64,000 nucleotides of DNA from a bacterium (GCA_023266935.1 JAHFOF010000001.1:27-64026), one strand, 5' to 3'. Positions 8,150 to 62,079 are shown, counted from the stretch's first letter. The notes: generated by a model from the letters alone, not told the origin. Numbers and translations: made by a program.

Positions 8150-8536
8150 TTAGCTTTTAGGTTTTAGTTTCTGGCTTTTAGCTTTCGACTTTTTAACTTT
8201 CGGAGTTTTTTCTCCGAGAACTACATCAACATGACTAGTACGCTTTCGAATAACAAACGCTCGACCTCTAGACATGGGCAATCTTCGATAAAGAATCTTG
8301 CCTCCATTAACACTCACTTCCTTCACAAACAAATTTTCAAGAGGAATAGAGAGTGATTTGGCATTTGCAATAGCTGAAGCGAGAAGTTTCTGAACTGGAC
8401 CAGCTGAACGCTTTGGCACGAACGCGAGGATGTTTTGAGCATCTTCAATCGACTTGCCTCGAATTAAATCCGCCACACCTCGAACTTTGCGGGGAGATTG
8501 TCTGTAGTTTGAAAGTGTAGCTCGAGCGTCAGTCAT
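8150..8536 (-). CDS. rplV: 50S ribosomal protein L22
   Basis: 128 aa L22. Confidence 0.9.
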   Translation of the reverse strand: MTDARATLSNYRQSPRKVRGVADLIRGKSIEDAQNILAFVPKRSAGPVQKLLASAIANAKSLSIPLENLFVKEVSVNGGKILYRRLPMSRGRAFVIRKRTSHVDVVLGEKTPKVKKSKAKSQKLKPKS

Positions 8537-8541
8537 ATAAA

Positions 8542-8883
8542 TTATTTTTTACTTTCAGTGGCACCCTTGGCTGCTTGAGCAGCACTGATTTCTGCTTCTT
8601 TTTTCTTTTGTTCGAGATCCTTCTGCATCTTACCTCCGTGTTTGGTGAACTTGCGAGTTAAAGAAAATTCACCGAGCCGGTGTCCAACCATATCCTCGGT
8701 GATAAATACTTCTATGTGATCTTTGCCGTTGTGTACTCCGAAGGTAAATCCGACCATTTCTGGAGCTATCTGGCATGCTCTGGACCAAGTCTTAATAACA
8801 CCGGTAGTACCGGGTTTCTTGCCCTCAATCTTTTTCAAGATTCGTGGGTCAACATATGGACCTTTTTTACTAGATCTGGTCAT
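8542..8883 (-). CDS. rpsS: 30S ribosomal protein S19 (C-terminal extension)
   Basis: S19 core GHRLGEF; lysine-rich C-terminal tail. Confidence 0.9.
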
Positions 8884-8918
8884 TAGAAATAAAGAAGCTC
8901 AAGACGAGCTGTCGAGAT

Positions 8919-8947
8919 ATAGTATAGAAATCAAGGCATATTGTCAA
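8919..8947 (-). promoter_or_regulatory. sigma70-like promoter for rpsS and downstream operon
   Basis: Minus strand reads TTGACA, 17-nt spacer, TACTAT; lies just downstream of a terminator hairpin and upstream of the rpsS ATG. Confidence 0.55.
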
Positions 8948-8956
8948 TAAATTCAA

Positions 8957-8982
8957 TGAAAAAGCCAGGAATGAATCCTGGC
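8957..8982 (-). terminator. rho-independent terminator after GC-rich gene 9010..9630
   Basis: Hairpin GCCAGGA-atgaa-TCCTGGC followed by a T-run on the minus strand. Confidence 0.6.
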
Positions 8983-9009
8983 TTTGGACTAGTACAGTCC
9001 CTTTTGTCG

Positions 9010-9630
9010 CTAGATCCCCTCGAGTTCCTCGAGAAGAACTGTCGCGATCCTCGCGTCTTCTTCTTCCTCAGCAATGAGCCGGTCGGTCTTGACGATTATC
9101 AACTCGCCCTTTCGTGTGACGAGAGCCCCCAACGGTTCGACGCCGGGCTGACGTTGAACCAGGTCAACACATACCAACCCATTCGGGTTCAGCCATGTGT
9201 GACAGGTCCAGACCGCGTCAGTCGCCAGAGTTCGAAGACCGGCTCGTGCCTCGATCGGAATCTCCGGCGCCGTCTCACCCTCAGCGAGCCGACGGTACTG
9301 AAGCACCGTTGCATGCCTGGTGGGCTTGCCCTGACAAACCAGATTGAAACTGTGCCCATCCACGAGATGCAGACCGTTCGCGGTGAGCCCAACTCGGAGC
9401 ATCGCCACCTGAATCTTCTGCATGTTGTTCATGGCCTGAACACCGCGTCCTACTCCGTTCTCGCGACGACGAGCAAGAAGTTCCTGCTCAGTTCTGCGCT
9501 CAATCGAGCGAATGCCCGGAGGAATTGATCTCAAACTCGGTGAAATGAATTTCACCGTGAGATCATCGATCATCCCAAGAGGAATGGGGTGGCTCTCGCC
9601 CGGTCGAGCCGAAGCGATTCGATCAAACAT
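9010..9630 (-). CDS. hypothetical protein; GC-rich (~58%), probable foreign origin
   Basis: 206-aa ORF; GC content far above surroundings; GGAGAG Shine-Dalgarno before the ATG; own promoter and terminator. Confidence 0.6.
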   Translation of the reverse strand: MFDRIASARPGESHPIPLGMIDDLTVKFISPSLRSIPPGIRSIERRTEQELLARRRENGVGRGVQAMNNMQKIQVAMLRVGLTANGLHLVDGHSFNLVCQGKPTRHATVLQYRRLAEGETAPEIPIEARAGLRTLATDAVWTCHTWLNPNGLVCVDLVQRQPGVEPLGALVTRKGELIIVKTDRLIAEEEEDARIATVLLEELEGI

Positions 9631-9703
9631 TTGATACTCTCCGTGGTGTTGAAGGGAAAAAGGAGACTTGGAACGAACACTGGATACTACTTATCTACTT
9701 TGT

Positions 9704-9732
9704 AGAGTAGCACACTTGATTTAAAAAGTCAA
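9704..9732 (-). promoter_or_regulatory. promoter/operator, copy 1 of duplicated element
   Basis: Minus strand TTGACT-TTTTAAATCAAGTGTGC-TACTCT; near-identical to the element at 10507..10535, including the downstream AAGTAGATA(A/G)G. Confidence 0.55.
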
Positions 9733-9750
9733 ATGGAGAATTTATTTATA

Positions 9751-9781
9751 TAAACAAAAGCCGCCCGATGTTTTGGGCGGC
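9751..9781 (-). terminator. rho-independent terminator after gene 9826..10449
   Basis: GCCGCCC-gatgtttt-GGGCGGC hairpin followed by TTTTGTTTAT on the minus strand. Confidence 0.6.
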
Positions 9782-9825
9782 CAGACTTTTAAGAAAAGTC
9801 TCTAACCTACTGCTCGCTGACTATA

Positions 9826-10449
9826 CTAGGCAGCGATGTCCTCGAGTTCCTTGGACAGGTCCTCAGCGAAACCTTCGTCCATCACCTGCTCCTGCAGAGC
9901 GACGACTTGCTTGACCTCGCTCTGAAGAGCAATGAGGTACTGATTGATCTCGTTGTAAGCCACAACGAGATCCTCGTAGGTGGCGTTCGACTTCGGGTCC
10001 AGAAGGTCGCGAAGCCGTGTCTGCAGAGAGAAAATCTCGTCGGCCTTGGCTTCCAGCACCTCCGGTGCCGTTTTTCGGATCACTTGCATCACGTTGTCCT
10101 GATGATCAAAGGTTCCTGAAAGGAACCCCTCGAACTTGTCATACAGCTCATCCGTGATGCTCTGCGCCATAGAAATGACGCGAAGGATCTGGCCGTCATC
10201 TGTCTTCTGCTTCGCTCGGACCTTGTCCACCTGCGCATTGCAGAACAGAACGAGCCTCTTGATGCTGTTGTCGGGGCCAGAGGGAAGCCGGAACCCGCCG
10301 AGCAACTTCAAGATGCCAAGGATGTACTTCATGTTCTTGATCGCGACGACGAGTTGCGCAAGCGGACGATCTTCCGGCTTTGGCTTGGACGTCTTTCCCC
10401 TACGGGTGATCCTTGCCTTCTTCTGATGTTTCTGCGCACTCGGGGTCAT
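9826..10449 (-). CDS. hypothetical protein; GC-rich; lysine-rich N-terminal tail and C-terminal coiled-coil
   Basis: 207-aa ORF; strong AGGAGG Shine-Dalgarno 5 nt before the ATG; GC ~58%. Confidence 0.6.
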   Translation of the reverse strand: MTPSAQKHQKKARITRRGKTSKPKPEDRPLAQLVVAIKNMKYILGILKLLGGFRLPSGPDNSIKRLVLFCNAQVDKVRAKQKTDDGQILRVISMAQSITDELYDKFEGFLSGTFDHQDNVMQVIRKTAPEVLEAKADEIFSLQTRLRDLLDPKSNATYEDLVVAYNEINQYLIALQSEVKQVVALQEQVMDEGFAEDLSKELEDIAA

Positions 10450-10506
10450 GATGCCCTCCTGGGCAATGTGTGTAGAGCGGTAGGCGTTTTTGCCTATCTA
10501 CTTACC

Positions 10507-10535
10507 ACGCTAGCACACTTGATGTAAAATGTCAA
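10507..10535 (-). promoter_or_regulatory. promoter/operator, copy 2 of duplicated element
   Basis: Minus strand TTGACA-TTTTACATCAAGTGTGC-TAGCGT. Confidence 0.55.
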
Positions 10536-10552
10536 GCATTTTATTAGACACA

Positions 10553-10580
10553 GAAAAGGGCTCTGTTTAGAGCCCTTTTC
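10553..10580 (-). terminator. terminator after the membrane-protein gene
   Basis: GGGCTC-tgttta-GAGCCC hairpin flanked by A-run and T-run. Confidence 0.55.
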
Positions 10581-10615
10581 CAAACTAATTTGAGTATTAT
10601 CTAGCGAATACTCTC

Positions 10616-11305
10616 TTAATTCTTTCCACCCATTTCTCCACGAAGTCGTTCGATGAATCGGCCAGCTGCTTCCTGTCCCCCGAGACCAAATGAAAGGCCA
10701 AGAGCGAGAGAGATAGCAATCACTATACCAGTGAAGAGAGTTTGGCTGAATGCTGCTGCAATACCAAGCTGAGAAAGAGCGACGAGTACTGCGAAAATCC
10801 AAACTGCCCACTTGGCCAAAGTTCCTGCGAAATGCGCAGAACGAACTTCAGCAGTCTTTGCTGCAGTAACCACGATTCTTTCTGTGACATCACCCACAAC
10901 ACCTCCAACCAATAGGATGAGGGCTGCGACGATAACACGAGGAAGATACGCGATAACTACTTGTTGAAGGAAAAGGTTAACTTGTGTGAGGCCTAAGATA
11001 TCAAAGGCTGCCACAAGGAAAACCAATATCACAAACCACTTGACCAAACCACCGATGAAAGCACCTGAATCGAGATTTACTCCACCTCGTCTTAGGAAAC
11101 TCTCAAATCCTGCTCGGCGAAGTGCCTCGTCCACACGAAGTGAACGGAAAACTTGCCAGATTGCTCGGCCGAAGAGTGCACCGATAAGCCATCCGAGGAT
11201 GACGATGATAAGGGCGATAACAAGGTTCGGCACAAAGTTCACTACTCCCAACCAGAGATTCTGGAAAGAAAGAGTCAACACTTGTTGCCATGTGTTTAGA
11301 ATCAT
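10616..11305 (-). CDS. membrane protein with conserved TM-helix repeats (MscS-associated TM_helix type, no channel core)
   Basis: 229 aa; repeated hydrophobic helices with AxxLG/FG motifs resembling the pfam TM_helix repeat; no Shine-Dalgarno. Confidence 0.65.
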   Translation of the reverse strand: MILNTWQQVLTLSFQNLWLGVVNFVPNLVIALIIVILGWLIGALFGRAIWQVFRSLRVDEALRRAGFESFLRRGGVNLDSGAFIGGLVKWFVILVFLVAAFDILGLTQVNLFLQQVVIAYLPRVIVAALILLVGGVVGDVTERIVVTAAKTAEVRSAHFAGTLAKWAVWIFAVLVALSQLGIAAAFSQTLFTGIVIAISLALGLSFGLGGQEAAGRFIERLRGEMGGKN

Positions 11306-11428
11306 ATGTTCTTAACTGAAAAATACTTTAAGCTTTTAAATACCACTATATAGGGAACGTATTTATTATATACCTCTTTATTTCTAAAAAATGGCTTAAC
11401 CGTGTGGACTGTGGATAGAGAAACAAAT

Positions 11429-11989
11429 TTAAATGCCTAATTTATTGAGGATTTTGTGATTTTGAGAGTCTAGTATGTCTAAAATAAGCTTGTCATACAT
11501 CCCAAATCTATAGTGGAAATCTGCTGTTTCAAACGCGGCATAGCGAATCTCTTTACCTAATTCAGCTTCTATCCCTGAAATGGCTTTGGTAATCTTGGGT
11601 TTCTTCAAATGATCCCCTACTATTAAAAGATCCACTCGTGCTTCATTATCATGAAGAAAAATGCCTGAAACTAAAATAAGTTTTACTACTCCGACCTTTG
11701 CTAATCGTTTAACTATTTCTTTATCAGAAATGGGGCCTACATCAATTAGAAAATCTTGGAGAGGTTTAAGATGCGGATAATCTTTATTCAATGAATATCC
11801 TCGAGAACGCTTCTTTAAAAGTTTGGCTTTAATTAATTCGTTTAAACTTCTTCGAACAGTATTAGTTCTTTCTTTCGTACGATCAGTTACAGTTCTAAAC
11901 TCATAGGTGCTATCAGGATTAAAAACAAACATACGAATAATCTTCACCTTGGCCTCCCCTCCGAATATGCTAGATACTGATTTAGTCAT
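11429..11989 (-). CDS. hypothetical protein with N-terminal winged-helix (TrmB/MarR-like) domain
   Basis: 186 aa; N-terminal wHTH pattern; C-terminal domain unassigned. Confidence 0.55.
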   Translation of the reverse strand: MTKSVSSIFGGEAKVKIIRMFVFNPDSTYEFRTVTDRTKERTNTVRRSLNELIKAKLLKKRSRGYSLNKDYPHLKPLQDFLIDVGPISDKEIVKRLAKVGVVKLILVSGIFLHDNEARVDLLIVGDHLKKPKITKAISGIEAELGKEIRYAAFETADFHYRFGMYDKLILDILDSQNHKILNKLGI

Positions 11990-12008
11990 GCGCCCATTCT
12001 ACACTTAT

Positions 12009-12035
12009 AAAAAAGCAAAAACCACCCGAGGATGG
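12009..12035 (-). terminator. rho-independent terminator after rplL
   Basis: CCATCC-tc-GGGTGG hairpin followed by TTTTTGCTTTTTT on the minus strand. Confidence 0.6.
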
Positions 12036-12060
12036 CTTTGCTAATTCAACGATTTATGGC

Positions 12061-12450
12061 TTATTTTAATGTAACCTTCCCCCCTGCTTCCTCGATTTTC
12101 TTCTTGAGTTCTGCTGCTTCTTCTTTCTTCATGCCTGCCTTGAGCATCGAAGGAGCTGCATCGACGAGGTCCTTGGCTTCTTTCAAACCGAGTCCGAGGA
12201 CTTCCTTCACTACCTTGATGACTGCAATCTTCGCTGCTCCACCATCAGTAAGTTCAACATCTGCTGTTGACTTCTCATCCTCTGCTGGACCGGCTACTGC
12301 TGGGCCTGCGGCTGCAACAGCTGTAGCTGATACGCCGAATTTGTCTTCGAATACCTTGACCAATTCGTTTAACTCTAGGACGGACATCTCTTCGATTTCC
12401 TTCACTATCTTTTCGAATTTAGCTGGTACTGCTTTTGTTTCGTCTGACAT
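12061..12450 (-). CDS. rplL: 50S ribosomal protein L7/L12
   Basis: Ala/Gly-rich hinge; C-terminal domain [19 protein letters not shown]...GGKVTLK. Confidence 0.92.
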
Positions 12451-12461
12451 ATTTTTAATGA

Positions 12462-12950
12462 TTAATTTTTAGTTTGAGCAATCTGACTAAGCGCGACTGC
12501 GAAGCGCTGAATTGGAGAATTGATGATATTCACAAACTTACCTCGCAAAACTTCGAGCGTAGGAATGAGAGCGATGTCTTCCATCTCTCTCTTGGTCATG
12601 TATCGTCCTTCGAAAACTCCACCAAGAATGTTTAATCCTTCTGGAAATTTTTTCTGGAAACCATATACTCCGCGAGCTGGTGCAACGAGGTCTTCTGACC
12701 ATGCGACTGCGAGTTCGCCTGAGAGTTCGGGTTGTTCACCACCAAACTTTTCATCGGCGAGCACTCGTTTGGTCAAAGATTTCTTGGCCACAGTATATGA
12801 GACACCGTCACCCTTTAAGGCTCGGCGCATGGCTGAAGCTTCAGAAACTTTGAGTCCGTGGAAGTTCACGAAAACTAGAGACTTGGCTCCTTTGAGCGCG
12901 CTCTTTAGTTTATCTACAATTTCTCCTTTCTTGATTCGTGATATTGCCAT
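12462..12950 (-). CDS. rplJ: 50S ribosomal protein L10
   Basis: 162 aa L10 family; immediately upstream of rplL. Confidence 0.9.
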
Positions 12951-13135
12951 CTGATAAATAGCTTCTAGCGACTAGGTTTTAGCTGCTAGCTTAACTAATA
13001 AAAAAACACCCCTGTAAGGCGCCGACAATGTAAAACATTGAGAGTTAGTCTCGGCAGGACCTCTTGGGTTTCCTAGAAGCTTAAAGCTTGTACCTAGAAA
13101 CTACCCACGCCTGCTGTCTTTGACCTTACCTGCAC
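12951..13135 (-). promoter_or_regulatory. putative rplJ leader (L10 autoregulatory region) with weak upstream promoter (TTGACA at 13159..13164)
   Basis: ~180-nt untranslated leader with CAATGT-aaa-ACATTG hairpin and a T-run; position equivalent to known L10 leaders. Confidence 0.35.
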
Positions 13136-13253
13136 CACTTTATAGAAAAACAGAATTTTGTCAATTATTTTTCAACCTTGATTTTTTCTACTAATACAGT
13201 TCCTTTATACATATTGTTTTCAAATTCGGTCTCTTGTTTAAGAACTTTGGTAG

Positions 13254-13281
13254 ATAAAAAACCCGACTTTCATGTCGGGTT
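13254..13281 (-). terminator. rho-independent terminator
   Basis: ACCCGAC-tttcat-GTCGGGT hairpin followed by a T-run on the minus strand, directly after the stop of ORF 13283..13564. Confidence 0.6.
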
Positions 13282-13282
13282 G

Positions 13283-13564
13283 TCAGCGCTCTTTCTTGAG
13301 TCTAGAGGCGTGGAGTTTTTTGGGAAGTAACCTGCACACATTGGCAACTCCAGAAATAGCCCACGGAACTGCCACAATGCGATTGGTCACAACCCACCGA
13401 ATATAGACTGGTGACATTCCCACCATCCGATCAAATACGTCACGGTTATTGTGCTGAACAATCCTCTCACGAATGACTTGGAGAATCAGAACATTCTCCC
13501 TCTCTGCGTCATTCAACACTGTGCCGAAGAAGTTATCTGTCAGCACTCTCTTACCTTTGAGCAT
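13283..13564 (-). CDS. hypothetical small protein (93 aa) between rplB and rplJ
   Basis: ORF bounded by a terminator; no recognisable family; could be non-coding. Confidence 0.3.
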   Translation of the reverse strand: MLKGKRVLTDNFFGTVLNDAERENVLILQVIRERIVQHNNRDVFDRMVGMSPVYIRWVVTNRIVAVPWAISGVANVCRLLPKKLHASRLKKER

Positions 13565-13623
13565 TAATCCCCCAGAAAGAAGTATCTATCCACATCCTAC
13601 ATTTAGGATTAAGTCTGTCAATC

Positions 13624-13647
13624 AAAAAACTCCTTCGGGAGTTTTTT
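13624..13647. terminator. hairpin after rplB
   Basis: AAAAAACTCC-ttcg-GGAGTTTTTT palindrome. Confidence 0.5.
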
Positions 13648-13674
13648 GATTTTACTTGTAGTAAGCTTGTCGAA

Positions 13675-14514
13675 CTATTTCTTGCCAACTTTTCTTCGGC
13701 GGACAATGTGTTTGTTTGAGTATTTCTTGCTTCGGCGAGATTTCTGACCCTTGCCTGTTGGCTTCCCATATACAGAAATAGCACGTCGGCGACCACGACC
13801 CTGACGACCTTCTCCTCCTCCGTGTGGGTGGTCTACTGGGTTCTGAGCTGTTCCTCGAACCGTTGGACGAACTCCAAGCCATCTGTTTCTTCCGGCTTTC
13901 CCAAGATTGATCAGTCTGTTTTCATCATTTGAAACTTCTCCAACAGAGGCCCACGCTGTTTCAAGAACCTTGCGAACTTCGGTTGAAGGCATTTTCAAAT
14001 CCACATAACCTCCATCTTTAGCAGAAACTTCTACATAATTTCCACCACTTCGAGCAATTTTCGCTCCGCCCTTTGGTTTGAGTTCCACATTATAAACAAA
14101 GGTTCCAACAGGAATATTTTTTAGAGGAAGGCGATTTCCGGCAGTCAAAGGTGCTGTTTCTGAAACTACATATGTATCTCCCACTCGGGCAGATTTATGA
14201 AGCAACACATAGCGTCTTTCACCATCTTTATAAGCGACCAAACCAATAAATCCACTTCTGTTTGGATCATATTCAACTGTTTTCACCGTGAAGGGCACAT
14301 TGATTTTGTTGTAAACGAAATCAATTTCACGAAAGAGTCGTTTGTGTCCACCTCCTTTGTGTCGAGTGGTGATTCGGCCTGTATTGTTTCGACCATTCGC
14401 TCGGCGAAAACCTTTGGTTAAAGATTTAGTAGGTTCATTTGTAGTGATGAACTTACTAAAATCAATCGATGAGTTCTGTCTCTGAGATGGTGATGTTGGT
14501 TTGTGTCGCTTCAT
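13675..14514 (-). CDS. rplB: 50S ribosomal protein L2
   Basis: 279 aa; conserved L2 C-terminal GGGEGRQ region. Confidence 0.95.
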   Translation of the reverse strand: MKRHKPTSPSQRQNSSIDFSKFITTNEPTKSLTKGFRRANGRNNTGRITTRHKGGGHKRLFREIDFVYNKINVPFTVKTVEYDPNRSGFIGLVAYKDGERRYVLLHKSARVGDTYVVSETAPLTAGNRLPLKNIPVGTFVYNVELKPKGGAKIARSGGNYVEVSAKDGGYVDLKMPSTEVRKVLETAWASVGEVSNDENRLINLGKAGRNRWLGVRPTVRGTAQNPVDHPHGGGEGRQGRGRRRAISVYGKPTGKGQKSRRSKKYSNKHIVRRRKVGKK

Positions 14515-16591: not shown

Positions 16592-17785
16592 TTATTTGAC
16601 GATCTTGGTAACCACACCCGCACCCACAGTCTTGCCTCCTTCACGGATAGCGAAGCGCTGTTGGTCTTCGAGAGCAACTGGGGCTACAAGCTTCACTTGG
16701 AAAGTGACTGTGTCTCCTGGCATAACCATCTCTACTCCTGCAGCCAAAGTTACTTCTCCAGTCACATCTGTTGTTCGGATATAGAACTGTGGTTTATATC
16801 CAGTGAAGAATGGGGTGTGTCGACCACCTTCCTCTTTTTTAAGAATATAGACTTCAGCTGTGAATTCAGTATGAGGAGTAACTGAACCGGTCTTGGCAAT
16901 AACCTGACCTCGGTGGAGGTCTTCTTTCTTCGCACCGCGAAGAAGAATACCTGCATTGTCTCCTGCTTGACCTTCTTGAAGGTTCTTGTTGAACATTTCA
17001 ATACCAGTCACCACTGTCTTCGAAGTGTCTTTGATACCAACGATTTCTACTTCTTCACCAACCTTTACTCGACCTCTTTCGATACGGCCAGTAACCACAG
17101 TTCCTCGACCTTCGATTGAGAAGATGTCTTCAATCGGCATGAGGAATGGTTTGTCCAAATCTCGAACTGGAATTGGGAAATAAGTATCGAGAGCATTAAC
17201 CAAATCAAGAATCTTCATTGACCATTCGTCTGTGTTGTCCTTGGCTTCAAGAGCTTTGAGAGCTGAACCTCGGATAACTGGAGCATTTTCTCCATCGAAT
17301 TCGTATTTCTTTAGAAGATCACGAACTTCTTCTTCAACAAGGTCGATGAGTTCTTTATCAGGAACCATGTCACATTTGTTGAGGAAAACAATAATCTTTG
17401 GTACTCCAACCTGCTTTGCAAGAAGGATGTGTTCACGAGTTTGAGGCATCACTCCGTCTGTAGCTGCAACCACGAGGATAGCACCGTCCATTTGAGCGGC
17501 ACCAGTAATCATGTTTTTGATGTAGTCAGCGTGTCCAGGAGCGTCTACGTGTGCGTAGTGTCTTGTGTCTGAATTGTATTCAGAGTGAGAAAGGGAGATA
17601 GTAATACCTCGGGCCTTTTCTTCAGGTGTCTTATCTATATCATCCACGCTCTTAACCGTCGCTTCCTTGCCTGCGCGGTGAAGCACATTCAAAATTGCTG
17701 CGGTGAGAGTCGTCTTGCCGTGGTCAACGTGTCCGATGGTACCAACGTTGATGTGTGGCTTTGTACGATTAAATTCTCCTGCCAT
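16592..17785 (-). CDS. tuf: elongation factor Tu
   Basis: [14 protein letters not shown] and NKCD GTPase motifs; 397 aa. Confidence 0.97.
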
Positions 17786-17964
17786 AAAATTAGTAAATTA
17801 TTGTATTTAATTAAGTAATGTAAGTTTTGAAGCGAAGGGAGCGCGCGAGAACGGCTCTCTTCGACTCAGAACGGAAATTCTGCGAAAAGTGTTGTGTTTA
17901 TTGGATTTTTTAGATTTTTAGACTAAAAAAGGCCGAACAAAAATGCACCTAACGCGTAGGCACT

Positions 17965-17993
17965 ATCTTACGCAAAAGAGTGAAAATAGTCAA
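17965..17993 (-). promoter_or_regulatory. sigma70-like promoter upstream of tuf (leader ~180 nt with hairpin)
   Basis: Minus strand TTGACT, 17 nt, TAAGAT. Confidence 0.5.
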
Positions 17994-18010
17994 CTAGTAA
18001 GCCCTTATAA

Positions 18011-18045
18011 AAAGAAAAACCCGACTACCATTTGGTGTCGGGGTT
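18011..18045 (-). terminator. terminator of the ncRNA
   Basis: CCCGAC-accaaatggta-GTCGGG hairpin followed by TTTTTCTTTTTAT on the minus strand. Confidence 0.6.
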
Positions 18046-18420
18046 GCTTTGAAGCAAATGATTGAAACGAAAGAGCTCGCGTGAGCCCGGGGCGGCGACG
18101 GGTTGCGTACCGTCTACCGCGCCCGAGTCACGCTCCCGCGATGTGCCAAGCGCTTGGCCGACAACCACGGGGGTCGTACCAATGCCCTCTTGATTTTCGC
18201 TTTCTGCCTGGGGCCCGGGCTAAAGCTAGTTCCAATTTTTAACTACAATCACGAATGGGAGGTCTGGAACGAATGTTCCCTTTCCATCCGGCGGTACTGA
18301 TGCTTTTGGGGTTCTGCAGAACCCTACTAGGCTCCGCGATTCCTCTTTGGTTTGCTCCGCTTTTCTTTTGCTCGATGATCTTCGCTCAATTACACGGATG
18401 TCGAGCCACACCCGCTTCTA
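18046..18420 (-). ncRNA. unassigned structured, GC-rich non-coding RNA (~375-400 nt)
   Basis: Bounded by a TTGACA-16nt-TATTAT promoter (18427..18454) and a terminator (18011..18045), both on the minus strand; ~60% GC island in a 40% GC genome; no credible ORF. Confidence 0.45.
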
Positions 18421-18426
18421 TCTTCC

Positions 18427-18454
18427 ATAATACACCTTTCGGGTCTTTTGTCAA
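18427..18454 (-). promoter_or_regulatory. promoter of the ncRNA
   Basis: Minus strand TTGACA, 16-nt spacer, TATTAT. Confidence 0.55.
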
Positions 18455-18508
18455 GCGGTTTTATCATTTCATTTATCTAAATCCTAAAATACCCATAATT
18501 TTAGCCAT

Positions 18509-18533
18509 AAAAAAGCCCCGCGGGTGCGGGGTG
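18509..18533 (-). terminator. terminator after gene 18536..18826
   Basis: CCCCGC-accc-GCGGGG hairpin followed by CTTTTTT on the minus strand. Confidence 0.6.
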
Positions 18534-18535
18534 TA

Positions 18536-18826
18536 TCATTGATTGTTAGTGACGAGGTCTCGAGATTCGTATTTGGTCTTACGAATGGGTTCAAGGAGAC
18601 TCACTGCCACAATCCTGAACTTTTTGTCTTTGGACCTGTAGAGTACGAGTTCGATTCTACAGCGAAACTTCGTTCGACCGTCGCTTGGTTGCATATCTGA
18701 GGCATGAGCAACCACGTACTTCGTCACCATCCCATGCAAATGAAGTACAGATTGCCAATGAAAGTTGTCTTGGCTCCTATCACGCTCGTATCGAAATACG
18801 AGCTCGATAATCTTGCCCTTTTTCAT
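18536..18826 (-). CDS. hypothetical protein (96 aa), weak RelE/ParE-like pattern
   Basis: Basic small protein; C-terminal motif FRCRIELVLYRSKDKKFRIVAV loosely resembles the RelE/ParE toxin core. Confidence 0.4.
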   Translation of the reverse strand: MKKGKIIELVFRYERDRSQDNFHWQSVLHLHGMVTKYVVAHASDMQPSDGRTKFRCRIELVLYRSKDKKFRIVAVSLLEPIRKTKYESRDLVTNNQ

Positions 18827-18906
18827 ACGTTCCGAGAGTTGAAGGTATGAGAAACCGTGAACGTCTTATTTAAATCTGCCCCAAAGCAAGAAAATAGTCA
18901 ATAAAA

Positions 18907-19398
18907 TTATTCCTTTGCTGTCTTTACATAATCGACCACTCTATCCATATTGTTATTGATGTAGGCAATCCTATTGTATTTAGTCCACAATTCTTTTGCT
19001 TCTTCGTAGGAAATGGCTACCCCATCAACTTCACCAGTGATCACATCTTCATGAGTAGGTGACAAGCTGTTTATTTGTAATTCAGGTATAACATTGCCTG
19101 CGCTATCCAAATCTGTAAAACCCAATTTTGAACCCGATCTTGCAAATATATTTTTTAAAATAATTTTCTTACCATCTATTTCTCCAGTTATCACGGCTTC
19201 TTTCTGAACATCTCCGTTTTTTAAGTATGTTGGTTCGCTGATTTCTAATTTTAGATCTGTAGTTTTCAGTAATTCTCTTTCTTCGTTAGATAAATTGTTA
19301 AAGGCGTTTTCTCTCACAACAGAGCTTACTACTTGCTGTTCGTTCGCATTTTCGTGCAACATTTGCTGTGACTCTGCCCATGTTTTTGGTTCTTCCAT
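18907..19398 (-). CDS. hypothetical protein (163 aa)
   Basis: ORF between fusA and tuf; acidic; no family assignable. Confidence 0.45.
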   Translation of the reverse strand: MEEPKTWAESQQMLHENANEQQVVSSVVRENAFNNLSNEERELLKTTDLKLEISEPTYLKNGDVQKEAVITGEIDGKKIILKNIFARSGSKLGFTDLDSAGNVIPELQINSLSPTHEDVITGEVDGVAISYEEAKELWTKYNRIAYINNNMDRVVDYVKTAKE

Positions 19399-19489
19399 AA
19401 AATTTAACTATTTTTTAATTTATAAATTATAACATTAATAAAAAATCCCCGATTGGAGATTTTTTATTCTTCCGAGGAGACTCTCCGGA

Positions 19490-21655
19490 TTAGGCCTTCA
19501 CTCCTGTTCTCTGTTCAATAATAGTTGTGGCAACGTTTGGAGGAACGATAGCATAATGATCAAATTCCATAGTAGAAGAACCTCGACCTTCGGTCATGCT
19601 TCGAAGATTGGTGACATAGCCGAACATTTCAGAAAGAGGAACCATCGCTTTAATCACCTTTAATTCGTTTCTATCTTCCATCGCTTCGATCTGTCCACGT
19701 TTTGAAGAAAGGTTTCCAGTGATGTCTCCCATGAACTTTTCTGGGACAACAACTTCTACTTTCATAATTGGTTCGAGGATAACTGGTTTAGATTTTTTAG
19801 CCGCTTCTTGAAAAGCTTGTGAGGCTGCGATTTTGTAAGCGATTTCCGAAGAGTCCACATCGTGATACGAACCGAAATTGAGTTCACAAGAAATATCCAC
19901 CATCTTGTAGCCAGCGAGAATTCCACGTTCCATCGCTTCCTTCACCCCCTTTTCAACTGCAGGAATAAATTCTTGGGGAATAACACCTCCTTTGATCGCA
20001 TCGATGAATTCAAACCCTTCTTCTCGATGAGCATTCTTGGGAACTTTTTCTTCTGGATCATATTTTGGAAGAGGTTTAATTTTTATCTTGACGTGACCGT
20101 ACTGACCCTTACCTCCTGTTTGTTTAATGTATTTGTTTTCTACTTCGGCTTCACCAGTGATAGTTTCCTTATAAGCTACTTGAGGTTTGCCTACATTTGC
20201 TTCTACACTAAACTCGCGTTTCATACGATCAACGATAATTTCTAGATGGAGTTCTCCCATGCCCATGATAACTGTCTCGCCCGTCTCTTGATCTGATTTA
20301 ATTTTAAAGGTTGGGTCTTCATCCGAAAGTCGTTTGAGCGCCATACCCATTTTCTCTTGGTCAGCCTTGGTCTTCGGTTCGATGCGAAGAGAAATAACTG
20401 GTTCAGGAAAAGTGATTTGATCAAGAATTATTGGATTGTTCTCATCAGCAAAAGTGTGTGAAGTCTTTGCATCCTTCAAACCTACTGCAGCTGCGATCTC
20501 TCCGGCGAAAACTTTTTTCACTTCCTCACGTTTATCTGCTTGGAGACGAACGATTCGACCAAGTCTCTCTTTGTTTCCTGTAGTTGCATTATAAATATAG
20601 CTTCCAGATTCAATCGTTCCTGAATAAACACGAAAGAAAGTAAGTTGTCCGACGAATGGATCAGCTTGGAGTTTAAATGCGAGTGCTGAAAATGGTTCTG
20701 AATCAGAAGCGTGTCGAAAAACTTCTTCGCCTGTGTTCGCGTCAATCGCTTTAATAGGAGGGATGTCGAGTGGAGATGGGAGATAGTCAACCACAGCATC
20801 GAGCACGAGCTGAACACCCTTGTTTTTTAACGCAGAACCAGCCATGACTGGGAAAATTTTGTTGGCGATCACCGCTTTGCGCAGAGTTTCTTTGAGTGCT
20901 TCGATTGAAATTTCTTTCCCTTCCAAATAAGCATTCATCAGACCTTCATCGTTTTCTACTATTCGTTCAACCAATTCTCTTCGATATTTTTCTGCATCAG
21001 CTTTTAAATTATCTGGGATTTCTTTCTCAATGACTTGATTACCCATATTGCCTTCGAAGTAATACGCTTTCATTTTCAAAAGGTCTACAATCCCATCATG
21101 TTTTTCTTCTTCGCCAATTGGGATTTGGAATCTTACTGCTTTTTTTGAAAGTCTGTCGAGAATTGATTTGTATGAACGTTCGAACGATGCACCGGTTCGG
21201 TCAAGTTTATTGATAAAACAAATTCGAGGTACTTGAGCCTCTTCTGCGTAGCGCCAGTTGGTTTCAGATTGAGGCTCAACGCCAGCTACTCCATCGAAAA
21301 CCACAACCGCACCGTCGAGTACACGCAGAGAGCGTTTAACTTCTACGGTAAAGTCGATGTGCCCAGGAGTGTCAATAATATTAAAACGATATTTTTTTTC
21401 TTTATTCTGTCTATCAGCTTCAGGAAGATATGTTGGACCCCAGAAACAAGTGATGGCGGCAGCGGTGATGGTGATGCCCCTCTCTCGTTCTTGCTCCATC
21501 CAGTCAGTAGTAGTGTCTCCTTCGTGCACTTCACCGATTTTGTGTTGAGAACCAGTATAAAAAAGCACACGTTCAGAAGTAGTTGTCTTCCCAGCATCAA
21601 TATGCGCGATGATTCCAAAGTTTCGTACTCGTTCTAAAGGATAGTCTCGTTCCAT
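19490..21655 (-). CDS. fusA: elongation factor G
   Basis: 721 aa; AHIDAGKTT and DTPGH G-domain motifs; EF-G domains II-V. Confidence 0.97.
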
Positions 21656-21774
21656 ATAAGGTTAATTTTGGGCTAAAAATAAAAAGCAGTACCTGCTTAA
21701 GTAGGACTAGAATACAGGATCCAAAGGGAATAATCAAACAAAAACTCTCTTTCGGGAGATTTTTCTAATTATAG

Positions 21775-22044
21775 TCAGGGGGCTCTTTTTTCTTCTATAA
21801 ATGTTAAGAGTTCATCCAATTCACGAGCATCATTCAATGACGGGCCACCCACTATTTCTCTTGTACCCTCTTTCATAGCGCGCAACATCTCTTCAAATTT
21901 TTCAGAATATATACCTTTCTCGACCTCTTGAATAACTGACTCGTCTTCGGTTAACCTAGCCCAAAGAGATAATGCTGATGCCTTTTTTTCGTCAGACTCG
22001 TATAACTGTTTTTCAGGTTTTGGTATTTCTTCAGTTCCCATCAT
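21775..22044 (-). CDS. hypothetical small acidic protein (89 aa)
   Basis: ORF between the retropepsin gene and fusA. Confidence 0.4.
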   Translation of the reverse strand: MMGTEEIPKPEKQLYESDEKKASALSLWARLTEDESVIQEVEKGIYSEKFEEMLRAMKEGTREIVGGPSLNDARELDELLTFIEEKRAP

Positions 22045-22137
22045 TTTTATATTAAGCTACTATAATTAAATTATAACACGTAAAAACTCCCTCTCGGGAG
22101 TCTTCTGTTTACCAAGCGAAGTGAGTGAAAGCTTTGT

Positions 22138-22542
22138 TTATTTAAAATCTCTTTGTTTTAACTCGACCTCTTCTTTCAAGAGATCGAACTTAACTATAAA
22201 AATATCAAAGAATCTCCTTTGCCCAACCACCCCCCAGGGCATCACCCGACCAGCTACATCAGGCATAAACCCGGCCTCTATATCATAGGACCAACCGCCA
22301 ACTTCAATTTTAACTTTATGAAGAAAGTACAAAGAAGCTTTACCTCCAATACCAAACACTTCATTTTTCTTACCCTTTTCAATATCTATTCCAATAGCTC
22401 TGCCTATTTCTGCATCAAAAATGCAGAGATCTGCTCCAGAGTCCACGAGAACTTCATAGCCTATCTCTTTATCTCTTAACTTGAGTTTTATTGGTATGAC
22501 TGGTCGTAGAGTACTTCCGTATTTTGCATACCTAAATTTCAT
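22138..22542 (-). CDS. retropepsin-like (clan AA) aspartic protease
   Basis: VLVDSGADLCIF catalytic D-S-G-A motif plus GIGG flap-like motif; 134 aa. Confidence 0.75.
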   Translation of the reverse strand: MKFRYAKYGSTLRPVIPIKLKLRDKEIGYEVLVDSGADLCIFDAEIGRAIGIDIEKGKKNEVFGIGGKASLYFLHKVKIEVGGWSYDIEAGFMPDVAGRVMPWGVVGQRRFFDIFIVKFDLLKEEVELKQRDFK

Positions 22543-22544
22543 AG

Positions 22545-22757
22545 TTAAAAAGAACCCACAAATGCTGACAAATTTTCAGGTATGCGAGTGAGAAATGGAG
22601 TTTTTTCAGTTTTCTTCTGTGCTTTTAATAGAGCTTCTTTTAAGGTTTTTCCAAAACCAAGAACTGTCTCTTCGTCTTCTGCAAGAGCAACCCATTGCCC
22701 TTTATATTTTTTATATAGTGTAGTCCAATCTTTTGCCATACATATATTATTACACAA
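22545..22757 (-). CDS. small protein (DUF5678-like), partner of the retropepsin gene
   Basis: Motif YKKYKGQWVAL..ET..GFGKTLKEALLKAQKK resembles DUF5678-type small proteins; its stop is 3 nt from the protease start. Confidence 0.5.
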   Translation of the reverse strand: MCNNICMAKDWTTLYKKYKGQWVALAEDEETVLGFGKTLKEALLKAQKKTEKTPFLTRIPENLSAFVGSF

Positions 22758-22772
22758 AAACAGATGTAGGTG

Positions 22773-23243
22773 CTACCACGCAAAATGCGCGAAGGCTTTG
22801 TTTGATTCAGCCATCTTGTGAGTATTTTCTCTCTTACGAACTGCATCTCCTTCATTCTTTGAAGCAGAAATAAACTCTTCGGCGAGTTTCATATGCATCG
22901 GTTTGCCCTTCTTGGCTCTTGCTGCTTCTATAATCCACTTCATCGAAAGGAATTGTCGTCTTTCAGGACGAACTTCACGAGGAATTTGATAGTTCGCACC
23001 TCCAACACGACGAGAACGAACTTCCATAGTAGGTCCAGTGTTCTTCAAAGCTTCTTCGAAAACTTCCAAAGGATCTTTAACTTTCGCAAGTTCTTTAATG
23101 GCGTCGAGGGAACGATAAACCACAGCACGAGCAGTAGTCTTCTTGCCTTCGAGCATTAAATAATTAATAAACTTCGCGATCTTTTCAGAATTATAAACTG
23201 AATCTGGGGTTAATTTTGGTTTGGCTTTAAGTTTGCGTCGCAT
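22773..23243 (-). CDS. rpsG: 30S ribosomal protein S7
   Basis: 156 aa S7. Confidence 0.92.
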   Translation of the reverse strand: MRRKLKAKPKLTPDSVYNSEKIAKFINYLMLEGKKTTARAVVYRSLDAIKELAKVKDPLEVFEEALKNTGPTMEVRSRRVGGANYQIPREVRPERRQFLSMKWIIEAARAKKGKPMHMKLAEEFISASKNEGDAVRKRENTHKMAESNKAFAHFAW

Positions 23244-29816: not shown

Positions 29817-30365
29817 TCAGTTGCGAGAAACCACACGGTCGCCCGCACCCCACCCGTGCGGATTCCCGACGGAGTTCGCGCGCAAGCCCCAACCGTCGCG
29901 GCCGGCGCTCCAGTCCGCGCGCACAGCCCAGAGTCGACCATCCTTACCACGAAGGTAAAAGATGAACCACTCGGTGCTCCCGCGGTTGTCCGCAAGGAAC
30001 TGCTTGAATTGGGATACCGATGTTTCCGCCTTGTCCCCCAGCTCGGTGAGGATGGGAGCATCGAGTGACGACTGCTCGAGCTTCCTTACAGCAAGCTCGG
30101 CCACATCGGTGACGGGAACTTCGAGGCCAAGGAACTGGCTCTCAAAATTGTTCCCGAACCACTTGGCCCCAGCTTCTGCAAAATACTGCTTCGAGGTGGT
30201 GACTGCCGGTTGGGCAGGCATCCTCACCGTGCGGAGAAGGGTGAGGAGGGTCTTGAAGACGATCTCGCCCTGACCACCGATAAAGCGAAGGAAGTTCTCC
30301 CAACCGCCCATACGGTTGATGCAAGCTTCCGTCTGCCCAGCGGTTACATCGTTGTACTTGGCCAT
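29817..30365 (-). CDS. DGR target protein (variable C-terminus)
   Basis: 182 aa; GC-rich; GGGGAG Shine-Dalgarno; last ~40 codons (RLWAVRADWSAGRDGWGLRANSVGNPHGWGAGDRVVSRN) overlie the VR; the TR-frame translation has Asn at the varied positions. Confidence 0.8.
   Translation of the reverse strand: MAKYNDVTAGQTEACINRMGGWENFLRFIGGQGEIVFKTLLTLLRTVRMPAQPAVTTSKQYFAEAGAKWFGNNFESQFLGLEVPVTDVAELAVRKLEQSSLDAPILTELGDKAETSVSQFKQFLADNRGSTEWFIFYLRGKDGRLWAVRADWSAGRDGWGLRANSVGNPHGWGAGDRVVSRN
29824..29936 (-). repeat. DGR variable repeat (VR)
   Basis: Copy with G or C where the TR has A (minus strand); lies inside the 3' end of the target gene. Confidence 0.88.
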
Positions 30366-55675: not shown

Positions 55676-56464
55676 ATGTCGCGTCTGCAACTCAAACTTG
55701 CGATTCTTATTTCTGTTGTTCTGATCGGTGGAGCAACTGCTAATAGATTAATAAACTCTACTAAGGAGGCATCGAACCTGATAGCTCTAAAAAACACGGG
55801 TTCTGTTCAAAACAACGATACTTCTTTGCAAGACATCTCGCCGGCATATTCCACTTCTACTCCTTCTAGTATAAAAACAGAAACCTTAACCCAAACCGAC
55901 CTCATCGGTCGTCAATTGTTTTCTGATTATTTAAGTTTGTCTTCGAGTGGCCAGGCTACAGACGATAATATCAACGCCTTGGCTGGCTCATACGCAGAAA
56001 ATCTTTCTAACCTTAGTACTATAGCTGACATCTCAACCGACAAAATCACTCCAGAAGAAGACACGGTTGATAATCTTAGCGCTTACGGAGACTCCGTCAT
56101 CGCCATACACACAAAATATCAAAATCTCGCTTCTGCTCTTTCTACCAAAGGTGTCTCCGACATTAAAAGCGTGGCTTTTGTCTCTTTCGCCAATTCGATG
56201 AGTAGTTTGTACAGTCGAGCAGCATCAGAACTTTTGTTATTAAAGGTGCCTGCCTCTTTAGTCGAAAATCATGTGGCTCTTGTAAATAATTATTTATCTA
56301 GTGCCGACGCAGCGAAAACTTTAAGCACAATTTCAAAAGATCCTGCTGGAGCATACTCTGCACTCGTCACTCAACAAAAAAATTCTCAAGAAGAAATAGC
56401 TTTGTTCGAAAATATTCATCGAACTCTTATGTCTAATGGTATAATTACTAACAGCGGAACATGA
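55676..56464 (+). CDS. membrane-anchored hypothetical protein
   Basis: N-terminal TM; first gene of the plus-strand block leading into the secretion-like cluster. Confidence 0.45.
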   Translation: MSRLQLKLAILISVVLIGGATANRLINSTKEASNLIALKNTGSVQNNDTSLQDISPAYSTSTPSSIKTETLTQTDLIGRQLFSDYLSLSSSGQATDDNINALAGSYAENLSNLSTIADISTDKITPEEDTVDNLSAYGDSVIAIHTKYQNLASALSTKGVSDIKSVAFVSFANSMSSLYSRAASELLLLKVPASLVENHVALVNNYLSSADAAKTLSTISKDPAGAYSALVTQQKNSQEEIALFENIHRTLMSNGIITNSGT

Positions 56465-60343: not shown

Positions 60344-60348
60344 AATTT

Positions 60349-60957
60349 ATGGAAGATATAAAAATACTAGAACAACAAATATTAGACTCTCCTGAGCAAA
60401 TTAGAAAATTTGTTATGGAAAAAAAATGGGTTCCCATAGTTGAAGATATCTCTAAAAAAAATAATTTTTCCCTTGAACAAAAAGCTGCTTTAGAAAACGA
60501 AACCATATTTGTGCTCGTTGGATTAGATTTGCTAGATAACTTAGAAAAGAATCTCCTTGAATCTTTGGGAATTGAACTAGTTTTAGTTAAAGTGATAGTA
60601 GCTGAATTGAATGAAAGAATCTTTTTTGAAATAAAATCATTTCTTCCAACCGAAATAGAAGAGGTTCTGCCCCAGACTGAACAGCAAAAATCTACTTCAA
60701 ACTCCATCTCTGACTTTCAAAGTCTTCCTTCAGTTAAAACCACCGAACTTGAAGTTCTTCCACAAATGAGTGTGGTACCGGAGGGCAAGGTAATGGACCA
60801 CCTTCCGCCCATAACACCAACCCAACCAAAAGTCACCGCCTCTGGCGGGACCCCGCAAAATGCGGTGGCTCCTACTCCAGAAACAATCGTTCCTTTCAAA
60901 CCAATCATCACGGGGTACGACAAGGGTAAAGACCCTTATCGTGAGCCAATCGAGTAG
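60349..60957 (+). CDS. hypothetical protein
   Basis: ORF within the cluster. Confidence 0.4.
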   Translation: MEDIKILEQQILDSPEQIRKFVMEKKWVPIVEDISKKNNFSLEQKAALENETIFVLVGLDLLDNLEKNLLESLGIELVLVKVIVAELNERIFFEIKSFLPTEIEEVLPQTEQQKSTSNSISDFQSLPSVKTTELEVLPQMSVVPEGKVMDHLPPITPTQPKVTASGGTPQNAVAPTPETIVPFKPIITGYDKGKDPYREPIE

Positions 60958-60980: not shown

Positions 60981-61406
60981 ATGCGATTCCAAGTTCCTCA
61001 ATTTATAGAGGTTGAAGACAAACTATTCGGACCTTTAACCTTCAAACAATTTATTTATGTCGCCGGGGCGATCGGCCTATCTGTTATCTTTTTTATCCTT
61101 TTGCCCACCTTTGTGGCTATCCTATTGTCTATTCCTGTCCTTATATTTGGAGCGGCACTTTCGTTTTTTAGAGTGAACGAGCGACCTTTTATACAAGTCG
61201 TCGAGGATTTCTTCCACTACACCCTTTCTTCCAAGCTTTATGTTTGGAAAAAAGAAGAAAAACAGCCAGAAACAAAAGTGGTTGAGCCTGGTCAACCAAC
61301 ACCTCAGATTTATGTGCCCAAACTATCTGAATCCAAACTTAAAGATTTGTCTTGGAGTTTAGATATAAAAGAAAATCAGAATCCGATAACCAAAGACACT
61401 GTATAA
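60981..61406 (+). CDS. VirB3/PrgI-like small membrane protein
   Basis: Two-TM hairpin immediately upstream of the VirB4-like ATPase. Confidence 0.5.
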   Translation: MRFQVPQFIEVEDKLFGPLTFKQFIYVAGAIGLSVIFFILLPTFVAILLSIPVLIFGAALSFFRVNERPFIQVVEDFFHYTLSSKLYVWKKEEKQPETKVVEPGQPTPQIYVPKLSESKLKDLSWSLDIKENQNPITKDTV

Positions 61407-61413
61407 TACACAC

Positions 61414-62055: not shown

Positions 62056-62079
62056 TTCGACAAGCTCACCATAAATAAT

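Follow-up and report, generated by a model that had tools for sequence, protein, structure and literature searches.

The window analysed here (the whole stretch of 64,000 nucleotides from a bacterium, GCA_023266935.1 JAHFOF010000001.1:27-64026, with positions counted from its first letter) contains a str-S10-spc ribosomal protein gene supercluster whose S10 operon is split between rplB and rpsS, with rplJ and rplL, the genes for L10 and L7/L12, lying inside the split; the make-up, distribution, and probable origin of this arrangement are our subject. On the minus strand the genes run rpsL, rpsG, three small open reading frames (ORFs), fusA, ORF163 and a 96-amino acid (aa) ORF, tuf, rpsJ, rplC, rplD, rplW, and rplB (L2, 13675..14514; Pfam Ribosomal_L2_N and L2_C, E 1e-29 and 4e-47), which ends the upstream S10 half. 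There follow an interval of 4791 bp (8884-13674) and then rpsS (S19, 8542..8883; Pfam S19, 3.6e-33), which starts the downstream half and is followed by rplV, rpsC, rplP, rpmC, rpsQ, the spc genes, and secY. The interval holds seven ORFs: ORF93, rplJ, rplL, ORF186, msc, ORF207, and ORF206.

The canonical S10-spc cluster of Escherichia coli and Bacillus subtilis, among the most conserved gene orders in prokaryotes and an anchor for synteny and binning of uncultured bacteria, runs rpsJ-rplC-rplD-rplW-rplB-rpsS-rplV-rpsC-rplP-rpmC-rpsQ and then into spc; in E. coli the S10 operon is a single L4-controlled transcript. All eleven S10 genes are present in the window in canonical order and orientation, followed by spc and secY, but rplB does not lead directly into rpsS within one transcription unit: the 4791-bp gap, terminator-like hairpins, and a separate rpsS promoter lie between them. 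Since rpsS and the genes after it have a conserved promoter and 5′ hairpin of their own, one transcript of the E. coli type cannot cover it, and the eleven genes cannot here be co-regulated from one leader.

Every element that the sequence-only reading of this DNA had listed for the split was found on the minus strand, and sequence scans bore out that rplJ-rplL have their own promoter, leader, and terminator, and rpsS its own promoter. Right after rplB lies a bidirectional terminator-like site (13620..13651), a perfect 14-bp hairpin (100% complementary) between A- and T-runs. The cargo of the rplB/rplJ gap (13260..13621, minus strand) comprises a promoter-like site (13621-13594), ORF93 (13283-13564), and a terminator (13281-13260); next, all on the minus strand, come a promoter-like site TTGACA-16-TAAAGT (13137..13164, by consensus scan), the leader, rplJ (12462..12950; Pfam L10, 5.5e-17; NCBIfam L10 equivalog, 126 bits against a cut-off of 85), rplL (12061..12450; Pfam L12, 7.5e-25), and a terminator-like hairpin 3′ of rplL (12018..12039, by terminator scan). 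The G+C content at third codon positions (GC3) of rplJ and rplL, 0.40 and 0.44, is host-like. Three minus-strand sigma-70-like sites have 10/12 matches, before ORF93 (13621-13594), the rplJ leader (13164-13137), and rpsS (8947-8919). The terminator scan returned 16 sites against 4.5 +/- 2.1 in shuffles, including hairpins at 13620-13651, 13281-13260, 13023-13005, 12039-12018, and 9782-9759, and two further terminators were read by eye, at ~10552-10579 (after msc) and ~8959-8984 (after ORF206). The terminator that had been proposed to insulate rplB is thus present in the window, but an insulating role is not general, for in the minimal relatives described below the rplB stop codon leads straight into the rplJ promoter with no terminator between. 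The predicted starts and stops of transcription would split the present locus into a series of independent units: (tuf-)rpsJ to rplB; rplJ-rplL; ORF186; msc; the cargo genes; and rpsS into spc.

A core module and its variable cargo

A scan for L10, keeping one genome per species, gave 80 loci from 80 different assemblies, all metagenome-assembled genomes of Parcubacteria/Paceibacteria type. By tblastn with the window proteins, the order rplB-rplJ-rplL-ORF186-msc-rpsS is found in about 40 of these (hereafter S10-context loci, which form one clade), and the four-gene core rplJ-rplL-ORF186-msc, ~2.5 kb long, stays linked in almost all 80. The interruption between rplB and rpsS measures 4.8 kb in the window and 2.8-9 kb in relatives; across the clade the rplB/rplJ gap ranges from 114 to 4264 bp and the msc/rpsS gap from 133 to 3956 bp. 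In L027, L029, L031, L039, and L048 both gaps are as short as 114-170 bp and the insert is the four-gene module alone; because minimal genomes keep gaps of only 114-190 bp, the insert must be regarded as composite. What had been read as a single 4.8-kb insertion is instead an old ~2.5-kb core with later, lineage-specific cargo (ORF93, ORF207, and ORF206) in two gaps.

The cargo found in these gaps across the clade is mutually unrelated, and includes a PemK/MazF toxin with an adjoining gene, truD, a bPH-domain protein, and many orphans. Between the window and its nearest relative, L002, flanking genes are ~78% identical in DNA, whereas neither gap shows detectable similarity. ORF93 has no match in Pfam, NCBIfam, PHROG, or PADLOC, forms a singleton cluster, and has no homologue in 86 loci. 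Both module junctions have since become turnover spots for accessory genes; here ORF93 occupies one, and the GC-rich pair ORF207 and ORF206, which are co-promoted, the other. Like chromosomal integration hot spots, the two fixed junctions (rplB/rplJ and msc/rpsS) hold 0-4.3 kb of unrelated genes per genome; unlike them, they lie inside the most conserved bacterial gene cluster, with no integrase, transposase match, tRNA, or att-like repeats found. Specifically, i) no ORF of the insert matches an integrase or transposase family in Pfam, NCBIfam, or PHROGs; ii) no tRNA lies nearby; and iii) no repeats flank the insert boundaries, where a repeat search gave only a duplicated promoter block. The insert accordingly lacks the marks of a genomic island or mobile element, there being no integrase or transposase match, flanking direct repeats, or tRNA target.

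The two companion genes of rplJ-rplL in the core are conserved. ORF186 (11429..11989, minus strand) has a predicted N-terminal winged helix and a C-terminal alpha/beta domain; its 392 homologues are all unnamed, although PF12840 has been precomputed for some. In the AF2 model (mean predicted local distance difference test, pLDDT, 86.6) the N-terminal domain adopts a predicted DNA-binding fold that superposes on the winged helix-turn-helix domains of IclR- and MarR-type regulators: Foldseek returned those of IclR, MarR, and CggR with probability ~1.0 and E ~7e-3, and LysR regulators also matched. The motif SG-x10-RVDLLIVGD looks like a degenerate nucleotidyltransferase signature. ORF186 also matches the PADLOC profile PDC-M05A over its full length (2.5e-14); in comparison with PDC-M05, however, its neighbours are rplL and msc, with no evident partner (the PADLOC scan covered ORF186 and the cargo proteins), and in comparison with defence islands it is fixed across the class beside rplJL, msc, and, in outgroups, the 23S rRNA gene, which is not defence-island behaviour. 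The last core gene, msc (10616..11305, minus strand), encodes a 229-aa MscS-type membrane protein with two stretches of the 'conserved TM helix' family PF05552 (1.9e-14; 53.7 bits, cut-off 22); against NCBIfam NF033912 ('msc') it scores 74.9 bits, below the cut-off of 100, and is therefore a partial relative only. It is 74-97% identical across the clade, exceeding L10 conservation in most S10-context loci. A clade-specific hairpin, GAGTATTCGCTAGATAATACTC, and then the msc terminator follow the gene (10552..10613, minus strand, read from sequence), and the motif AGCTAGRTARTR occurs directly after msc in 31 S10-context loci only. The clade-specific hairpin is palindromic (GTATTAnnTAGCTAGATAATAC) and, in the window as in those loci, separates the stop codon of msc from the terminator (10592-10613, minus strand).

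On the rpsS side, the cargo consists of two cassettes, both on the minus strand: one (9759..10535) with a promoter copy at 10495-10535, ORF207 at 9826-10449, and a terminator at 9782-9759; the other (8959..9732) with a promoter copy at 9692-9732, ORF206 at 9010-9630, and a terminator at ~8959-8984. Scanning and reading of the sequence thus agree with the earlier description of two GC-rich genes, each with its own promoter and terminator. The GC content is 53% in 9001-10000 against ~40% for the window, and GC3 reaches 0.74 in ORF207 and 0.61 in ORF206, compared with a median of 0.35 among the ORFs of the window (sd 0.09, n=88). Over 41 nt the promoter blocks of the two cassettes share 80% identity, and a 25-nt core pattern with degenerate positions, derived from the pair, fits both exactly; there is no further copy in the window, and L002 carries its own near-identical promoter pair. 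Neither protein has a PHROG or PADLOC match. The family of ORF206 comprises 171 clusters at 50% identity, and no Pfam match was obtained for 60 of its members; the AF2 model of ORF206 is of high quality (pLDDT 92.5, predicted template modelling score 0.86), with no Foldseek match in PDB or BFVD. An alignment of 60 family members contains no conserved stretch, and a metagenome scan from a 3-sequence alignment led to a single locus, L088. Other GC-rich cargo ORFs were ruled out as remote ORF206 relatives by profile search. ORF206 and ORF207, otherwise unrelated, both end in an acidic helix, (E/K)ELE(G/D)I, within an 88%-identical 17-mer (9013-9029 and 9835-9851).

Such composition could suggest that the whole 4.8 kb arrived recently as one genomic island or, failing that, that ORF207 and ORF206 were recently acquired from a GC-rich donor. 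Apart from the GC3 values, i) a search of 5.8 billion proteins with ORF207 found only itself, and among the loci it has one relative, in L002; ii) the gaps of the window and of L002 have no DNA similarity to one another, although the flanks are ~78% identical; and iii) the ORF206 homologue of L002 is 38% identical where msc and rpsS are 97-98% identical. We nevertheless consider recent import unlikely. The core module is ancient; integrase and transposase matches and flanking repeats are lacking; and ORF206-like genes occupy the same msc/rpsS slot in nine genomes, often beside truD (several are convergent with it, and a further member adjoins truD at another genomic location), their promoters being native, AT-rich, and of a single type. 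Furthermore, high GC3 is a property of all ORF206-like genes (0.60-0.93 for the nine members outside the window, against 0.35-0.55 for ribosomal protein and module genes of the same loci), which argues for long residence with maintained composition, and family members are 27-51% identical in protein where flanking genes are 84-98% identical. The description of the GC-rich genes as foreign is therefore doubtful for ORF206, whose pattern does not appear to fit simple recent import. A bolder proposal is that the module junctions serve as expression slots for fast-turning-over cassette genes specific to the candidate phyla radiation (CPR), with ORF206 as the type case and its high GC content maintained. 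If true, the promoter and 5′ untranslated region (UTR) block would be homogenised within a genome ahead of each cassette gene; high-GC coding would be kept by selection (for instance for mRNA stability, or for translation that depends on rare codons and is coupled to the supply of ribosomes) or else through biased gene conversion in the course of frequent exchange; and a new kind of integrase-less cassette system would lie inside the ribosomal protein supercluster. We regard this as decidedly unlikely. An integron-like cassette array was rejected: there is no integrase, the sole repeat is the 41-nt promoter block, one copy upstream of ORF207 and one upstream of ORF206, and both genes are followed by terminators of their own.

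The rplJ leader RNA

In the rplKAJL-rpoBC arrangement the rplJ leader is autoregulated by L10(L12)4, through translational repression in E. coli and attenuation in B. subtilis. The window retains the adjacency of rplJ and rplL and a structured leader, and, like many relatives, also has a hairpin and U-run after the leader. The leader (13005..13130, minus strand) consists of an outer helix P1, an asymmetric loop (AAAGACA / CGAGAC), and a covarying helix P2, and scores 35.7 bits (E 3e-7) with R1, a covariance model built on 18 short leader versions; its 3′ part (13005-13023) is a terminator-like hairpin overlapping the 3′ strand of P1. In relatives, a TTGACA- or TTGCAT-type -35 box and then (T)GTAAAGT lie upstream, and nearly every locus has a core of 70-190 nt before rplJ, of the form AUAAGGUC-AAAGACAG-nnGGC-[variable hairpin]-CCnnCCGAGAC-[linker]-GGCCUUAU. 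R1 matches once per locus in 74 of the 83 sources searched; every match lies upstream of rplJ, and there is none elsewhere. In the resulting 74-sequence alignment, which was fitted to the model and somewhat favours structure, 96.4% of paired cells are standard (86% in shuffles), 115 cells are double changes (28 in shuffles), and the covariation score is 0.385 (0.18 in shuffles, 0/500 of which reach 0.385; slid partners give <0.1). Five of the six pairs of P2 covary.

The leader segments AAGGUC-AAAGACAG ... CCGAGAC ... GGCCUU resemble AAGGCC-CAGACAG ... GUCGAGUC-GGCCU of 23S rRNA. The E. coli stretch compared with the leader core, GGAAGGCCCAGACAGCCAGG...CUGGUCGAGUCGGCCU, is 100% identical to annotated 23S rRNA, and is what we take to be helix 42, the L10-binding region. 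The group's own 23S helix 42 is more diverged, yet retains the GACA / CGAGA loop. In AAGGXC, base X shows covariation with the distal GZCCUU as well as with the neighbouring GAGYC. The structured RNA directly upstream of rplJ thus resembles the 23S L10 site in sequence as well as covarying in helices. The Rfam L10_leader model (RF00557) has no match at gathering in the window and 8 relatives, and none at E<=10 in 8400-14000, nor did scans at either threshold give another Rfam family of relevance; conversely, R1 does not match the E. coli rplJ leader. The rplJ leader recognised from sequence alone is accordingly a real structured RNA, but one that the Rfam L10_leader model does not detect. We conclude that it is a putative functional analogue of the L10 leader, moving with its genes, in which L10(L12)n would bind the helix-42-like structure and feed back on rplJ-rplL. 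The shortest leaders lack a terminator, and their P1 stops 8-12 nt short of the start codon, which suggests that bound L10 would block ribosome access. In longer leaders, including that of the window, the 3′ strand of P1 doubles as the 5′ arm of the hairpin with its U-run (13005-13023), so that P1 and the terminator are mutually exclusive; these leaders differ from the three-structure scheme of B. subtilis in that the terminator arm overlaps P1. A K-turn model of the leader loop was dropped, as its register conflicts with the covarying P2 pairs. The leader region is enriched in CTAG-containing repeats, with 5 in 250 nt where the window as a whole has 1.6 per kb.

Context in relatives and direction of the move

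The expectation that rplJ-rplL normally sit with rplKA-rpoBC does not hold in this group. By tblastn, E. coli L11, L1, NusG, SecE, RpoB, and RpoC gave 0 matches in the window and 86 loci (1.29 Mb), while the positive controls E. coli L10 and L12 found 63 and 80 loci in the same search; and rplK, rplA, nusG, rpoB, or rpoC lies within 10 kb of rplJ-rplL in 0/80 relatives. With the controls positive, rplJL must therefore be uncoupled from rplKA-rpoBC throughout the group, and the linkage that defines the arrangement in model bacteria is lacking. The usual neighbour is instead the 23S rRNA gene, which begins 0.3-0.6 kb beyond msc in 31 of the ~40 loci outside the clade (L033, L038, L040-L044, L049, L052-L059, L061-L067, L069, L071-L074, L076, L077, and L080); L064 is the sole locus with a full-length 23S gene, and there 5S comes next. 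In a Taylorbacteria-type group the order ORF186-msc-23S is kept and rplJ-rplL are inverted relative to it, and in L068 and L070 the module sits between fusA and tuf. The msc-23S interval of the 23S-adjacent loci further contains a TATACTA-type promoter, a ~100-nt stretch in which a tiny ORF lies, and a terminator, CCGCTTTAAAAAGCGGTTTTT, that is conserved.

When the four module proteins are concatenated, a neighbour-joining tree (midpoint-rooted, no bootstrap) places all S10-context loci and the window in one clade, nested among 23S-adjacent lineages. One ancestral move, from a position upstream of 23S into the rplB/rpsS junction, is the simplest reading, its direction being a deduction rather than a demonstration because the tree is midpoint-rooted and without bootstrap. 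Specifically, the source would be an ultra-small Parcubacteria/Paceibacteria-type CPR bacterium of a Zambryskibacteria-related clade, in whose ancestor a self-contained module (promoter, L10-binding leader, rplJ, rplL, and terminator, then winged-helix ORF186 and the MscS-type membrane gene) would have moved between rplB and rpsS, and the S10-embedded module would have been inherited vertically in the clade since the move.

The landing site was probably already a boundary itself. In the window the rpsS promoter (8896..8947, minus strand, by consensus scan) comprises TTGACA-17-TACTAT (8947-8919) and a short 5′-UTR hairpin (8910-8896), followed by a U-rich tract. Upstream of rpsS in the S10-context loci shown, a terminator comes first, then a TTGACw-17-TATACTAT promoter that is highly conserved, and then a short hairpin followed by a U-rich tract; the hairpin stem comes in at least three compensating versions (AGCUC/GAGCU, AAGCG/CGCUU, and CCCGC/GCGGG). 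The promoter is thus not fresh, as it had been called, but conserved across the clade; moreover L068 and L070, whose module is elsewhere, also have a gap (0.86-3.5 kb) before rpsS, with a related promoter of its own and the same hairpin type. Because these two loci show gap and promoter without the module, the S10 cluster was probably already two transcription units and the module probably entered an existing boundary, so that splitting the operon there would have cost little. Expression from rpsS onward into spc would be driven by the conserved TTGACw-17-TATACTAT promoter, and the 5′ hairpin is possibly a leader element for the distal operon half. In the window (8896-8910) and the other S10-context loci the U-rich tract of the rpsS 5′ UTR reaches the start codon, with no obvious Shine-Dalgarno sequence.

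Taken as a whole, an ancestral move of the module into the rplB/rpsS gap, vertical inheritance, a pre-existing boundary, and independent units make up an explanation that we hold to be likely. We wish to stress the points that weigh against it: i) the tree on which polarity depends is a neighbour-joining one of four proteins, midpoint-rooted and lacking bootstrap; ii) the S10 operon of the 23S-adjacent genomes is outside view, the rplB/rpsS break having been assessed outside the clade in L068 and L070 only; iii) the source genome is seen only through the 64 kb window, part of a 149-kb contig, in which rplK, rplA, rpoB, rpoC, and the 23S gene were not located; iv) every promoter and terminator here is a prediction from sequence; v) if L10 stabilises P1, the longer leaders would predict anti-termination, not repression; and vi) the Rfam L10_leader model gives the leader no score even at E<=10.

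The tree could in principle be read the other way, with the S10-embedded position ancestral for the group and the 23S-adjacent one derived, since the root is a midpoint only and both arrangements are old. The 23S-adjacent order, however, occurs in a number of deep branches, among them L080/L055, the sister group, and the 'inverted' clade, and the S10 context in one nested clade, so that reverse polarity needs several independent excisions to the same 23S-upstream site and seems to us quite improbable. It is very improbable that the rplJ-rplL of the window are an extra copy, duplicated or horizontally acquired, with a working copy elsewhere beside rplKA-rpoBC. The rest of the source genome is out of view, and the expectation of such a copy was drawn from model bacteria; against this, the 80 best L10 matches each come from a separate assembly, not one of the 80 has rplK, rplA, rpoB, or rpoC within 10 kb, the composition of rplJ and rplL is host-like, and the putative autoregulatory leader is retained and covarying. 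(The window end at 60.3-64 kb, considered as a site for rplK/rplA, holds a PrgI/VirB4-type secretion cluster instead.) Lastly, an assembly chimera, in which 4.8 kb was joined to the S10 operon through mis-assembly or mis-binning, is next to impossible, since the GC jump to 53% at 9-10.5 kb tracks coding-sequence boundaries with AT-rich untranslated regions, and since, although the data are all metagenome-assembled, identical sequence occurs in two further assemblies and ~40 other genomes assembled by many groups share the order and form one clade. The exact L10 protein is on three contigs, of which an ENA contig (35.9 kb) and a Logan contig (L001) keep the same gene order as the window, and L001 is 100% identical to it over 6127 bp, across the rpsS-side junction up to the end of rplB. 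The check by synteny in relatives for which the sequence-only reading had called thus excludes chimerism: the arrangement is inherited, not an assembly error, and a break between rplB and rpsS warrants no mis-assembly flag and can be used as a clade marker.

We found no report in the searchable literature of an S10-embedded rplJ-rplL arrangement or of a CPR L10 leader. The arrangement is a lineage-specific variant of known things (rearrangement of ribosomal protein operons, L10 autoregulation by rRNA mimicry, and accessory-gene hot spots), unusual rather than revolutionary, at an unusually conserved site. What is less ordinary is the linkage rplJL-ORF186-msc-23S across the class, together with the leader variant and the family of high-GC3 orphans. 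The linkage draws attention to ORF186 and msc, both highly conserved and uncharacterised, which may be connected with the ribosome biology of these reduced genomes, and the L10 feedback unit, with its presumed binding site, would travel with its genes as a portable block whose leader variant is missed by current Rfam models.

Other elements of the supercluster and window

The str-S10-spc supercluster is punctuated throughout by variable gaps. The rpsG/fusA and fusA/tuf junctions (19399-23243 and 17786-19489) also hold accessory genes (DUF5678, an aspartyl-protease-like ORF, an 89-aa ORF, ORF163, and a 96-aa ORF); the fusA/tuf gap measures ~0.17-3.5 kb among relatives (junctions compared in L002-L037), and in L082 three additional ORFs separate rplE from rpsH. 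Within the fusA/tuf gap of the window (18020-18480, minus strand), a promoter-like TTGACA...TATTAT is followed by ~400 GC-rich nt with no same-strand ORF of 60 aa or more and by a strong terminator. The predicted fold of this segment is stabler than shuffles (z = -3.9), and it has no Rfam family match and no similar DNA in related loci; it is possibly a structured RNA of a new type.

Beyond the supercluster, the window carries PrgI-family and TraG/VirB4-type ATPase genes (60981-63963, plus strand), a cluster like those of type IV secretion or conjugation, preceded at 55676-60957 by several large ORFs without family match. A third GC3-rich orphan gene (29817-30365, minus strand; 182 aa, GC3 0.72, no Pfam or PHROG match) has a TTGACA-17-TATACT promoter and a 5′ UTR of ~165 nt (up to ~30540), in which a hairpin, TTCGCCATAGC...GCTATGGCGACAC, recurs, with an identical 13-mer, before a GC-rich gene in the rplB/rpsS gap of L070. 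In that same L070 gap (16940-17800), an antisense ORF is bracketed by an inverted repeat, ACATAGGTCTTGCCTATGTAAA, and may be a small insertion sequence-like element.

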